64,000 nucleotides of DNA from Acidobacteriota bacterium. GTDB lineage: Bacteria > Acidobacteriota > Thermoanaerobaculia > Multivoradales > JAHEKO01. The DNA lies in the NCBI GenBank assembly GCA_029862975.1, contig JAOTWP010000003.1, positions 5,904-69,903 of the forward strand. Direction: 5' to 3'. The notes under the pieces were generated by a model that saw nothing but the letters and a program-made list of their open reading frames with translations, did not search any database and had not been told where the DNA came from. Numbering within the stretch: position 1 is the stretch's first letter; each line of letters starts with the position of its first letter. The translations under genes and the position numbers were made by a program. Below are positions 26,846 through 30,361 of the stretch, one piece after another.

Positions 26846-29800
26846 TCAGCGGAAGTCGTGGCTCGGCGCGGAGGTGAGCTCGACCAGGGGCCAGAACTTC
26901 TCGGCCTTGATCGACAGGCTGCCGTCGCGGCGCTCGAGGATCCCCTCGACGACGAGGCCGGCGGAGCCGACGAGGGTGGTGCGGTGCTCCTGCAGCTGCT
27001 GCGGGGTGACGATGGCCTGGGCCATGCCGGTCTCGTCCTCGAGAGTGACGAAGAGCATCCCCTTCGCGGTTCCCGGGCGCTGGCGGACGATGACCGAGCC
27101 GGCGATGCGCACGCGGCTGCCGGCGGCGACGCGGGGCAGGGTGGCGGCCGGCAGCACCCGGTGGCGCCGCAGGTCCGCGCGCAGATAGGAGACCGGATGG
27201 CGGCCCGTCGTGAGCCCGGCCCCGGCGTAGTCGGCCAGGGTCTCCTCGAAGGGGGTCATCTCGGGGAGCGGGCCGCCGCGGCCGCCGGCCGCCGCCTCCC
27301 GCAGGAGCGGTCCGGTGGGCCGGGAGGCGGCGGCGACCTGCCACTGGGCGGCCCGGCGGCTCAGGCCGAGCGAGGCGAGAGCGCCGATGTCGGCGAGGTT
27401 GGCGAGCGCCTCGCCGGACAGCGCGGCGCGCCGGGCGAGGTCGTCGGCGCTCGTGAACGGCCCGGCCTCTCGCGCCTCGACGATCGACCGCGCCGCCTCC
27501 CGTTGGAGCCCACGGGCGTAGCGCAGGCCGATGCGCGCGGCTCCCGAGGCCGCGCCGTCGGAGTCCCAGCTGCACTCCCACCGCGAGTGGTTGACGTCGA
27601 TCGGCCGTGCTTCGACGCCGTGGCGCTGCGCGTCCTTGACGAGGGTCGCGGGGTGGTAGAAGCCCATGGGCCAGGCGTTGAGCAGGGCGATCAGGAACGC
27701 CGTCGGGTGGTGGGCCTTGAGATAGGCGCTGGCGTAGGCGATGAGCGCGAAGCTGGCGGCGTGCGACTCCGGAAAGCCGTAGAGCGCGAACGAGGTGATC
27801 GCCCGCACGATCTCCTCCTGGGCTCGGCCGGTGATGCCGCGCGCCGCCATCCCGCGGCGCAGGTTCTCCTCGAGCTCGCCCATGCGCTCGGCGGAGCGCT
27901 TGAAGCCCATGGCCCGGCGCAGCTCCTCGGCCTGGCCGCCGGTGAAGCCCGCGGCGTCCATGGCGATGCGCAGGATCTGCTCCTGGAAGAGCACGACGCC
28001 CAGGGTGCGCGCGAGGATGGGCTCGAGGCAGGAGTGCGCGTAGGCGACCTCCTGCCGGCCCCGGCGGCGCTCGAAGTAGGGGTTCACCATGCCGCCCACG
28101 ATCGGCCCCGGGCGGATGATGGCGACCTGGATGACCAGGTCGTAGAAGCTCGTCGGCGCGTTGCGCGGCAGCGACGCCATCTGGGCGCGGCTCTCGACCT
28201 GGAAGACGCCGACGGTGTCGGCGGCCCGCAGCATGGCGTAGGTCTTCTCGTCGTCGACCGGCAGATGGGCGAGATCGACGTCGACGCCTTCGTGGGCGCG
28301 GATCAAGGGAATCGCCTCTTCCAGGGCCTGCAACATGCCCAGGCCCAAGAGATCGATCTTGATGATGCCGAGATCGGCGCAGTCGTCCTTGTCCCACTGG
28401 ACGACGATCCGGTTCTCCATCGCCGCCGGCTCGAGCGGCACGACCTCGTCGAGCCTTCCGGCCGCGATGATCATGCCGCCGGAGTGCTGCCCGAGATGGC
28501 GCGGCAGGTTCTGGATGCGCTGCCACAGGGTGGCGAAGAGCAGGATGCGCCGGTCCGCGGCGTCGAAACCGGCGGCGGCCAGCTCCCGGGCCAGGACCTT
28601 GGGGTCGCCGCGGCTCTTGTCGTAGCTCCAGCGCCCGAACTGCTTGGCCAGCCGGTCGACCTGCGCCGGCGAATAGCCCAGCGCCTTGGCCACCTCGCGC
28701 GCCGCCGAGCGGTCGCGGTAGGTGATCACGTTGGCGGTCATCGCCGCGCCCCGCGGGCCGTAGCGCCCGTAGACGTACTGGATGACCTTCTCGCGCTGGT
28801 CGCCCGAGGGCAGGTCGAGGTCGACGTCCGGCCATTCGCCGCGCTCCTCGGAGAGGAAGCGCTCGAAGAGCAGCTCCATCTTCACCGGGTCGACGGCGGT
28901 GATCGACAGCGCGTAGCACACCGCGCTGTTGGCCGCCGAGCCGCGGCCCTGCACCATGATCTGCTCGCGCTTGCAGAACTGGATGACGTCCCAGACGATG
29001 AGGAAGTAGCCCGCGAGATCGAGCTTGTCGATCATGTCGAGCTCCTTGCCGATCTGGGCCTGGGCCCGCGCCGTGAGCGGCCGGAACCGGGCGCGGGCCT
29101 CGTTCCAGGTGACCTCGCGCAGGTAGGAGCTCATCGTCTCGCCGGGGGGGAGCGGATAGTCCGGGAAGCGGTAGCCGAGGTCGGCGAGGGTGAAGTCGAG
29201 CCGCTCGGCCAGCGCCGCGCTCGCGGCCACGGCCTGGGGAAGATCGGCGAAGAGCTCGGCCATCTCGCGGGCGCTCTTCAGATGGCGCTCGCGGTGCGCG
29301 TCGAGCCGGCGGCCGGCGGCGTCGAGATCGGTGTGGAGGCGTATGCAGGACAGGACGTCGTACAGCGCCTTGTCGCGGCGCTTGGCGTAGCGCACTCCGT
29401 TGGTGGCCACGAGGGGCAGCCGCAGTCGCCTGCCGAGCTCGGCGAGCGCCTGATTGCGCCACTCCTCGTCGCGCCCCCGGTGGCGCTGCAGCTCGACGTG
29501 CAGCCGGCCGTCGAAGAGCCCCGCGAGGCGGCCGATCGTGCGCTCCGCCGCGTCGAGGCCGCCACGGCCCAGCGCCCGGGCGACCGGCCCCTCGGCGCCG
29601 CCGGTCAGGCAGTGCAGGCCCGCGGCGTGCTCCTCCAGGGTCGACCAATCGACGGCGGCTTCCCCTTTGGGCCGATCCCGGGCGGCGGCGGTCAACAGTC
29701 GGCAGAGATTCCGGTACCCCTGACGGCTGGCGACCAGCAGGGTCAATCGGCTCTCTGGTGCGGAAGAGACTCCGGTAGAGGAAGGAAGGCAAAGAGAGGT

Positions 29801-30361
29801 GCCACCCGTTTCGCGGGAGTCGAGCTCCGAAGAGCCCGGTGGGCGGTCCCCGACGAAACGGGTGGTACCTCGTGAATCGACATCCCGAACTTGATCGCCC
29901 GAACCGGTACCCCGCCACGGAGCACCCGAGCCTTCCGTGTTCTTGCCCCTGCTCGAAGTCCCTTGACGACCGCCGCATGCCACCGTCTCCTCCAGCACCA
30001 CCTCGACACCGACCAGAGCCTTGATCCCCGCTTCCCGAGCCGCCTTGTAGAACCGCGGCGCTCCGTACACTCCGTTGCGGTCGATCAACGCCACCGCTGG
30101 CAGGTCGAGTGCCGCCGCCCGGGCGACGAGATCCTCCGGCTGCGACGCGCCGTCGAGAAAGCTGAACGCGGAGGCGGCGCGCAGCTCGGCGTAGGGCAGC
30201 GGCGATCCGCCGCCGTCGCCATGCCCGTACCGCCGCCGCTGGAGCTCCAGCTTGCGCGCCCCGGGCGAGGTCTCGAGGTGCTCCAGGGTGTACCCCATGT
30301 CCCGCACCGGCGTCACGGGCGTCTGGCGGGCGAGCGGATTCCGGGGCGGCTGGCGGTACAT
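26846..30361 (-). CDS. dnaE2: error-prone DNA polymerase III alpha-like subunit DnaE2 (ImuC), carrying a 72-codon insert
   Basis: PHP domain (YAELRAASAFSFLDGAS, AVALIDRNGVYG). Polymerase core (GSAANSAVCYALSITAVDP, DVDLDL, HSGGMII, GLLKIDLLGLGML, the latter read as IIKIDLLGLGML). OB fold at the C-terminus. The start at 30361 is favoured by the conserved upstream motif; alternatives are 30298 (ATG) and 30430 (TTG). Confidence 0.88.
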   Translation of the reverse strand: MYRQPPRNPLARQTPVTPVRDMGYTLEHLETSPGARKLELQRRRYGHGDGGGSPLPYAELRAASAFSFLDGASQPEDLVARAAALDLPAVALIDRNGVYGAPRFYKAAREAGIKALVGVEVVLEETVACGGRQGTSSRGKNTEGSGAPWRGTGSGDQVRDVDSRGTTRFVGDRPPGSSELDSRETGGTSLCLPSSTGVSSAPESRLTLLVASRQGYRNLCRLLTAAARDRPKGEAAVDWSTLEEHAAGLHCLTGGAEGPVARALGRGGLDAAERTIGRLAGLFDGRLHVELQRHRGRDEEWRNQALAELGRRLRLPLVATNGVRYAKRRDKALYDVLSCIRLHTDLDAAGRRLDAHRERHLKSAREMAELFADLPQAVAASAALAERLDFTLADLGYRFPDYPLPPGETMSSYLREVTWNEARARFRPLTARAQAQIGKELDMIDKLDLAGYFLIVWDVIQFCKREQIMVQGRGSAANSAVCYALSITAVDPVKMELLFERFLSEERGEWPDVDLDLPSGDQREKVIQYVYGRYGPRGAAMTANVITYRDRSAAREVAKALGYSPAQVDRLAKQFGRWSYDKSRGDPKVLARELAAAGFDAADRRILLFATLWQRIQNLPRHLGQHSGGMIIAAGRLDEVVPLEPAAMENRIVVQWDKDDCADLGIIKIDLLGLGMLQALEEAIPLIRAHEGVDVDLAHLPVDDEKTYAMLRAADTVGVFQVESRAQMASLPRNAPTSFYDLVIQVAIIRPGPIVGGMVNPYFERRRGRQEVAYAHSCLEPILARTLGVVLFQEQILRIAMDAAGFTGGQAEELRRAMGFKRSAERMGELEENLRRGMAARGITGRAQEEIVRAITSFALYGFPESHAASFALIAYASAYLKAHHPTAFLIALLNAWPMGFYHPATLVKDAQRHGVEARPIDVNHSRWECSWDSDGAASGAARIGLRYARGLQREAARSIVEAREAGPFTSADDLARRAALSGEALANLADIGALASLGLSRRAAQWQVAAASRPTGPLLREAAAGGRGGPLPEMTPFEETLADYAGAGLTTGRHPVSYLRADLRRHRVLPAATLPRVAAGSRVRIAGSVIVRQRPGTAKGMLFVTLEDETGMAQAIVTPQQLQEHRTTLVGSAGLVVEGILERRDGSLSIKAEKFWPLVELTSAPSHDFR
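29757..29971. mobile_element. MITE-like element copy E2 (~215 bp) lying in frame inside dnaE2
   Basis: Both ends align to E1. Left: GGTGCGGAAGAGACTCCGGTAGAGGAAGGAAGG. Right: CCGCCACGG...AGTCCCTTGACGACC. An internal 16-bp stem pairs 29798-29813 with 29854-29869 (15/16). It encodes the low-complexity peptide GRQGTSSRGK...STGVSSAP. Confidence 0.65.

Follow-up and report, generated by a model that had tools for sequence, protein, structure and literature searches.

A base-paired hairpin conserved inside the dnaE2 reading frame of a clade of Acidobacteriota

Results

The subject of this work is an extra segment in the dnaE2 gene on a stretch of 64,000 nucleotides from an Acidobacteriota bacterium (assembly GCA_029862975.1, contig JAOTWP010000003.1, positions 5,904 to 69,903), called the window here. 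The window has a G+C content of 71.8%. The dnaE2 coding sequence (26846–30361, minus strand) specifies an error-prone DNA polymerase III alpha subunit (ImuC) of 1171 amino acids, counted from the ATG of the database protein; a TTG start gives the longest open reading frame (ORF), which extends to 30430. The homologues contain the domains PHP, DNA_pol3_alpha, finger, HHH_6 and OB, are annotated as 'error-prone DNA polymerase', and come mostly from metagenome-assembled genomes of Thermoanaerobaculia/Acidobacteriota. The gene order around dnaE2 is common to the window and its relatives. By translation of the ORF, the whole in-frame extra segment comprises 81 codons (EETV...APES; 29750–29992, minus strand), and it is flanked by the PHP strands VGVEVVL (29993–30013) and LTLLVAS (29726–29746). 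A preliminary description of this DNA had placed a stop-free, in-frame segment between these two strands, and the ORF does read through the peptide that it quoted.

The insert is genuine and in frame. It is not an assembly artefact, because three independent assemblies encode the identical 1171-residue DnaE2; over 8.2 kb, the DNA of one of these assemblies has 100% identity. Solved DnaE structures match the PHP domain in two pieces, with query residues 101–182 (82 residues) standing against 11 residues in E. coli Pol III alpha. The earlier expectation that other proteins have only a short loop here fails within the lineage: among 120 DnaE2 homologues, the loop between the two PHP strands ranges from ~4 to ~75 residues and falls into several unrelated sequence types. 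In the AlphaFold model (52 homologues), residues 127–200 have a predicted local distance difference test score (pLDDT) of 27–33 and no secondary structure, and they sit between the confident strands 114–123 and 204–210. The insert is predicted by this model to be a disordered surface loop.

The insert contains a conserved 76-nt hairpin (29796–29871, minus strand). Its lower helix has 22 bp and leads through an asymmetric internal loop to an apical stem of 7 bp, which is capped by a variable tetraloop. The window's copy has 29 bp, interrupted, and a folding energy of −49.6 kcal/mol (z = −5.3). The 16-bp stem noted previously exists and forms the outer part of this hairpin. We fetched seven orthologous dnaE2 genes; the alignment consists of the window and six of these, and L006, the eighth sequence, was left out of model building. 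The hairpin has an identical length, with no insertions or deletions, in the seven aligned sequences (74–90% amino-acid identity), and both of its flanks are unalignable among them in sequence and in length. The core of the hairpin peptide, RGATRF.G[DN]RPPGS.EP..RETGGAS, represents one loop type common to the nine closest proteins (74–100% identity). All relatives with 74–86% BLASTP identity (P0002–P0009) have a homologous insert at the same loop.

The pairing in the hairpin is maintained by compensatory changes. RNAalifold on the aligned orthologues gave 29 pairs, with standard pairing in 96% of the cells. Ten pairs show changes on both sides, compared with 3.8–4.4 in shuffled alignments (3.8 +/- 1.4 for column shuffles), and 0 of 500 shuffles reached ten. 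When the 3' partner was slid by 1–3 columns as a control, only 0–3 double-changed pairs were left. The covariance model scores 97.8 bits at 29796–29871, and it found L006 with 48.9 bits even though this sequence was outside the training set. In L006, the apex is remodelled and 15 nt longer, while the outer (lower) helix is kept through compensatory changes, and the internal loop is kept as well. This 9-nt loop, ACCGCCCAC, lies on the 5' side of the hairpin (29839–29847, minus strand; codons GAC CGC CCA C..). Its CGCCCAC part (alignment columns 30–36) is invariant in the seven aligned orthologues, and ACCGCCCAC is also present in the L006 variant.

The constraint on the hairpin is at the nucleotide level. 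In its 25 codons, the third-position identity is 0.77 and the amino-acid identity 0.62; in the rest of dnaE2, the corresponding values are 0.60 and 0.83. The difference between third-position and amino-acid identity is 0.147 for the hairpin, and the maximum among 210 other stretches of 25 codons is 0.032. The codons GGT, CGC, CCA and ACG are identical in 7/7 sequences, against a gene-wide baseline of 69/460 conserved fourfold or sixfold codons that are identical. The amino-acid replacements within the hairpin are radical (F to C, L, G or S), yet they track the base pairing. These comparisons indicate that selection acts on the nucleotides and the base pairing of the hairpin, not on the encoded peptide. 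The preliminary description had offered a structure acting at the RNA level as one of two possibilities; the compensatory changes, together with synonymous sites that are more conserved than the amino acids, lend support to it.

Within the data searched, dnaE2 is the sole location of the core hairpin, which is single-copy. No second copy is present in the 2.43-Mb and 1.59-Mb contigs that carry the hairpin in dnaE2. A pattern of its conserved parts gave seven matches in the JGI metagenome collection, of which two were real, both of them the dnaE2 sites on these contigs. The covariance model, run over 297 kb of the window and related loci, found only the dnaE2 sites. A profile of the insert peptide matched only a DnaE2 fragment among 1.84 billion representative proteins, and a word-indexed protein search with the insert peptide gave no matches. 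No transposase, RAYT or integrase gene adjoins the hairpin in any of the loci examined, nor was an insertion sequence noticed, with no search aimed at one. At gathering thresholds, Rfam has no match in the window, and a permissive scan of 29650–30080 gave matches at chance level only (E = 2.3–4); known RNA families and tRNAs had no match in the window.

Several familiar kinds of inserted or embedded element could be set aside. Inteins have at least ~130 residues, start with Cys or Ser and end with His-Asn plus Cys, Ser or Thr at the C-terminal junction; the insert has 81 residues and lacks these junction residues at either end. An intron was rejected, as there is no match to a ribozyme or intron family in Rfam. 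A frameshift-stimulating hairpin was also rejected, as no orthologue has a slippery heptamer upstream.

Weak matches of the covariance model were noted in a helicase gene, in the window at 19503–19564 (plus strand; 17.6 bits, E = 0.22) and in L004 at 22330–22391 (minus strand; 22.8 bits, E = 0.011). Both fall at the same codon position (~residue 314) and are probably a coincidence within a conserved helicase motif.

A pyrimidine/U-rich tail follows directly on the 3' side of the hairpin (29757–29795, minus strand). It holds what had been described as the left terminal inverted repeat (TIR), ...CCTTCCTTCCTCTACCGGAGTCTCTTCCGCACC on the sense strand, in the window and in L001, the nearest relative. 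The first 10 nt after the stem contain 3–6 T on the sense strand in all eight orthologues (mean 5.1), where the background frequency of T is 0.14–0.17; the antisense side of the hairpin has a mean of 2.6 T. The U-rich tail is kept although the tails are unalignable between distant members. Because it is on the sense side only in all eight, we regard the hairpin plus the U-rich tail on the mRNA strand as the conserved unit. Read on the sense strand, G.U pairs exceed A.C mismatches, with 17 versus 4 cells or 11 versus 4 pairs. Both this excess and the presence of a U/T-rich tail on one side suggest that one of the strands is read as RNA. The hairpin and the tail together appear terminator-like in anatomy. 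A sigma-54 promoter in the 3' arm and tail was considered and rejected, since L001 does not conserve it and its spacing differs by one from that required.

The sequence on the 5' side of the hairpin is of a different kind. The window-specific 5' flank (29879–29989, minus strand) makes a net addition of 36 codons relative to L001 (~108–111 nt) and contains the motif described as the right TIR (29939–29971) and a match to CCGCCACGG. It is absent from L001, whose DnaE2 has 90% amino-acid identity, and the other orthologues have 4–20 unrelated residues at this place. Its presence in the window and absence in L001 do not set the direction of the change (gain or loss). The flank has no structure of its own (z = −0.2). 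The motif of the 3' tail is common to the window and L001 only. The comparison of DnaE2 orthologues that had been suggested as a check on lineage specificity divides the segment, with a 5' flank specific to the window and a core common to the clade.

The flanks had been likened to a palindromic repeat elsewhere in the window. This repeat (18124–18325, no strand assigned) occupies the intergenic region that separates osmC, on the minus strand, from the helicase gene, on the plus strand. The ends of the repeat are inverted; c1 (18124–18172, plus strand) and c2 (18277–18325, minus strand) match each other and have in common a purine-rich motif of ~45 nt. The repeat folds on itself with −113.5 kcal/mol (z = −6.2), and its matches to a hidden Markov model (HMM) have E values of 3e-6 to 3e-7. 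A solo third copy of the end motif, c3 (18402–18452, minus strand), is located 125 nt from c2 in direct orientation, with 79% identity to c2 over 66 nt. The flank motif (~35 nt) is thus repeated, with three intergenic copies in the window, and L001 has palindromic intergenic repeats that carry the same core motif. All motif copies that were read have a small hairpin directly ahead of the pyrimidine-rich version of the motif, as do the hairpin and tail in dnaE2.

The preliminary description held that both ends of the dnaE2 segment align with both ends of the repeat at 18133–18316. In a Smith-Waterman rank test of the insert ends against 3060 background tiles, the left end scored 18 with c1, which is above every background tile, and reached p about 0.001 with c2; the right end reached p about 0.0013 with c2. 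Both matches are in the expected inward orientation and at the insert boundaries, and they cover only ~35–65 nt per flank. BLASTN, even with permissive scoring, gave no match of either insert end to the intergenic repeat. An HMM built from the three intergenic copies found the right end with E = 2.9 and missed the left end; one built from eight copies, with the dnaE2 copies excluded, gave E = 1.9 for the right end and E = 3.0 for the left. The interiors of the intergenic element and the dnaE2 insert are unrelated. The resemblance of the flanks to the intergenic repeat is weak and limited but probably real. The two insert ends can pair with each other and are only ~60% alike by eye. No direct repeat that could be a target-site duplication was found at the junctions of the whole insert, or at those of the window-specific 108 nt defined by comparison with L001.

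L001 has long palindromic intergenic elements at 2244–2588, 6234–6513 and 9725–10000, three within 10 kb, of which one is just upstream of dnaE2. Their arms are ~140 nt long and 71% complementary, and they have common termini, GGCTGGGCGGCCATAC, and an inner ..TYCAGGTAAGG.. motif. The GGCTGGGCGGCCATAC termini were not found in the window. A motif scan of 185,579 species genomes, a collection without the window's genome, gave 18 matches, all unrelated.

A match of 19–23 nt to the repeat motif (GGAAAGGACTCCAGGTAAGG; E = 0.014–0.07) also occurs at 20876–20898 (plus strand) in the helicase gene (18562–21396). It is in frame, in a variable linker that follows the zinc-binding domain of MrfA type. 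We rejected the idea that the motif was inserted in frame a second time here, since the linker length is the same in the orthologues and L001 carries the motif at the corresponding position. A more distant helicase orthologue has a linker that is 8 residues shorter at the GGAAAGGACTCCAGGTAAGG site.

The same PHP loop is occupied by other palindromes in other DnaE2 clades. L035 (P0059) has an unrelated palindrome with arms of octamer repeats (z = −3.1), and L041 (P0113) has another unrelated one, with a stem of ~24 bp (z = −2.3), that encodes GPLGLVPEPPPRLPGPGED. The PHP loop is a permissive, and possibly a preferred, site for palindromic DNA. In the arms of L035, (GGTCCTGG)n pairs with (CAAGACCT)n through G.U pairs. 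Read at the peptide level, the further loop peptides HPERSEGS, LRSAQDD, GRGQAPPLH and GDRHLIS..GEMRCLSP look like translated palindromic repeats.

Discussion

We give about an even chance to the segment being a composite, in which an old, single-copy hairpin is kept as a cis-acting structure of the dnaE2 mRNA and is accompanied by younger, repeat-derived flanks. The hairpin and its U-rich tract would have entered dnaE2 in the ancestor of the Thermoanaerobaculia-like (Acidobacteriota) clade. The landing site would have been a permissive, disordered surface loop of a catalytically degenerate PHP domain, and the hairpin would since have been kept by selection on its nucleotides and base pairing. 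As a structure of terminator-like or RNase III type, it would affect the dnaE2 mRNA in cis. When ribosomes trail the polymerase loosely, the structure would form, and the transcript of the mutagenic polymerase would be aborted or destabilised. Closely trailing ribosomes would melt the hairpin, which would then simply be translated. Repeat-derived DNA would have accreted around the hairpin on both sides at different times, the 3' tail being common to the window and L001 and the 5' flank restricted to the window. The segment would look like a MITE (a miniature transposable element with inverted repeats) because its flanks resemble the hairpin-plus-tail ends of the intergenic palindromic repeat. 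We infer the origin by palindromic insertion, the action at the level of the sense RNA and the regulatory effect from the features described above.

DnaE2 makes damage-induced mutations, so its dosage matters, and its control is usually ascribed to LexA at the promoter. Substrates of RNase III have ~20 bp or more of double-stranded RNA. The consensus structure predicts a lower helix of 22 bp, and with its internal loop such a helix would have a size usable by RNase III. The regulatory action proposed here would rest on this anatomy and on precedents, as MITE hairpins inside bacterial transcripts lead to RNase III cleavage or altered mRNA stability (review PMC10969869). Tentatively, the hairpin could be a coding-region cis-regulator of an undescribed kind, in which a translated hairpin, a U-tract and an invariant C-rich internal loop within the dnaE2 ORF gate the SOS mutasome polymerase through translation-dependent termination, RNase III cleavage or a loop-bound factor, and which is conserved across a family-level clade of Acidobacteriota. 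If so, a structure within the ORF that is selected for base pairing would add a layer of control after initiation for DnaE2, and bacteria would offer a clear case in which RNA structure, and not protein function, sets the sequence of a protein loop. The case also indicates how a palindromic insertion can be retained after the rest of its family has gone, and that one PHP loop is a repeated landing place for palindromic DNA in this phylum.

A number of observations weigh against the hairpin being a regulatory RNA structure of palindromic origin. The covariation sample consists of eight related sequences only. The excess of G.U pairs is partly due to one inherited column. In the folding of both strands, which had been proposed as a check, the sense strand folds better in four orthologues and the antisense strand in the other four, so that energy does not assign the strand. 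A simple consensus terminator scan (loop of 3–8 nt, at least 5 T in 8) called nothing at the hairpin, which exceeds canonical terminators in length and is followed by an imperfect U-tract. An origin from a mobile palindrome is not demonstrable, because the hairpin has no sister copies. L036 (GPLGL type) and L037 (TTRREAS type) have unstructured loop inserts with z about 0, and many homologues have a loop of only a few residues without a hairpin. On these grounds we rejected the generalisation that a hairpin occupies this loop in all DnaE2 of the class; many DnaE2 genes of the same class are without it, so dnaE2 does not generally require the hairpin.

The main rival reading, which we regard as unlikely, is a palindrome without function, selfish or neutral. 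It would persist because the loop tolerates it, its frame would be kept by selection against frameshifts, and its complementarity would be regenerated by template switching during replication. Hairpins with changes that look compensatory can arise and be maintained through template switching (PMC8794818). The unrelated palindromes of L035 and L041, and the lack of any in the same loop of other clades, suggest a permissive dumping site, and the peptide is predicted to be disordered. The conservation of the unpaired 9-nt loop in all eight sequences, with its CGCCCAC core invariant including the synonymous positions, is not explained by template switching. Seven orthologues have no insertion or deletion in 76 nt, while both flanks turn over completely, and the U-rich tail is kept on one side in all lineages despite the turnover of its sequence. 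If the palindrome were functionless after all, it would serve as a warning that a coding palindrome can show compensatory changes without having a function.

It is improbable that a single MITE of ~216 nt, of the same family as the repeat at 18133–18316, was inserted into dnaE2 and domesticated as a translated loop, as the preliminary description had it. The pairing of the two insert ends with each other is in keeping with such an element, and each end beats ~99.9% of the background tiles against the ends of the intergenic palindrome, in the right orientation. The genome of L001 also has palindromic intergenic repeats of the same core motif, and in-frame insertions of MITEs and of Rickettsia palindromic elements (RPEs) are documented in other bacteria (PMC10969869). 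The interior, however, shows no relationship with the intergenic element. Orthologues of the core occur across the clade, whose other members are without the end motifs; L001 has only one of the two 'TIRs'. There is also no other copy of the core wherever it was searched for, no target-site duplication at the junctions, E values of 1.9–3.0 for the ends with the HMM, and nothing but unrelated matches from the motif scan of the genome collection. For the segment as a whole, the domesticated mobile element is not borne out, since the core is without other copies, is orthologous across the clade and is not a recent insertion. The preliminary description would have counted a homologous insert conserved among relatives, with no other genomic copies, as a refutation; such an insert was found, with the twist that the conservation is of structure and not of protein. 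An origin from a repeat has weak support, and for the flanks only, which resemble the intergenic repeat and of which the 5' one is absent in L001; it does not extend to the core hairpin.

Action at the level of DNA is quite improbable. A cruciform or single-strand hairpin might be recognised by a recombinase, a transposase or a DNA-binding protein, or might affect replication. The two strands fold with about equal strength, extrusion would be feasible for a palindrome of this length, and the invariant internal loop could be a protein recognition site. The excess of G.U over A.C and the one-sided U/T-rich tail point instead to RNA reading of one strand, the element is single-copy, and none of the loci has an adjoining transposase, RAYT or integrase gene. 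It is very improbable that the hairpin is a by-product and that what is conserved is the peptide, as a functional DnaE2 loop that might, for instance, bind a partner: the residues G, R, G, R-P and T-G-G are invariant in eight peptides and other clades have conserved loop peptides of their own, such as GPLGLVPEP, but the amino-acid identity in the hairpin is below that of the gene (0.62 versus 0.83) with synonymous positions above average, the radical replacements (F to C, L, G or S) track the base pairing, and the segment is predicted to be disordered.

The closest analogues of the composite segment are the in-frame RPEs and the transcript-embedded MITEs such as Correia. According to the work of Ogata et al. 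(2000, 2002) as reviewed in PMC10969869, RPEs are hairpin-forming palindromes of ~100–150 nt inserted in frame inside housekeeping genes. Their translation adds a surface segment that the fold can accommodate, and different species have them at orthologous positions; all of this is like the dnaE2 insert, which is likewise an in-frame palindrome encoding a tolerated surface segment. By the same account, RPEs occur in tens of copies over many unrelated genes, unlike the dnaE2 core, which is single-copy and confined to dnaE2; no related copies in unrelated genes were found in the contigs, the 297 kb or the 1.84 billion proteins. The dnaE2 hairpin further differs from RPEs in its nucleotide-level purifying selection and its U-rich tail. 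Correia/NEMIS of Neisseria and ERIC of Yersinia are also transcript-embedded palindromes that fold into a long hairpin, and RNase III or RNase E can use these hairpins to change the mRNA level (PMC10969869). In contrast to the dnaE2 core, they are mostly in untranslated regions and multi-copy, with defined TIRs and target duplications.

SPRITE and terminator-like repeats and intrinsic terminators resemble the dnaE2 element in having a G+C-rich hairpin followed by a T-rich tract, which every one of the eight dnaE2 orthologues has on the sense strand. A hairpin followed by a tail is also the layout of the local intergenic repeat copies. Unlike intrinsic terminators, the dnaE2 hairpin is inside an ORF and translated, its stem is much longer and its U-tract is imperfect. 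REP/REPIN elements with RAYT transposases are imperfect palindromes whose structure is conserved over long times, as in dnaE2, but REPs are extragenic, and the dnaE2 hairpin is not high-copy, has no RAYT nearby and has no GTAG or CGTC head that was noted; these head tags of REPs are described in PMC3733652. In PolC, an exonuclease domain is inserted into the PHP domain, so the PHP of C-family polymerases tolerates large insertions (PMC3919608). The PolC insert is a folded, functional protein domain, and the dnaE2 segment is predicted to be disordered and is conserved at the nucleotide level. The dnaE2 case is set apart from these systems by its single-copy gene specificity, by synonymous-site conservation with covariation across a clade, and by its U-rich tail.

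Additional observations

The genes of the mutasome cassette are not contiguous: imuA-like (RecA_N) and imuB-like (IMS) genes are found ~5–7 kb upstream of dnaE2 (window ~30400–37700; also L038/L039), and the intervening stretch holds SRAP (YedK-like), radical SAM, DUF885 and one unannotated gene.

About 10 nt ahead of the dnaE2 ATG, the window has CTTGACTTACGCTTTGTTTACGCCTACGCT (30372–30402, minus strand), which is 97% identical over 31 nt in L001; the rest of the intergenic region around it differs between the two. CTTGACTTACGCTTTGTTTACGCCTACGCT resembles a −35/−10 pair with an embedded direct repeat, TTACGC...TTTACGC, and may be a promoter with an SOS operator.

A tandem array with a periodicity of 21 nt (and 9/12 nt) is located at 37738–37953 within a small ORF of ~104 residues. 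Its copy number is polymorphic, as the array is 21 nt shorter in one of three assemblies of the same strain (97 versus 104 residues).

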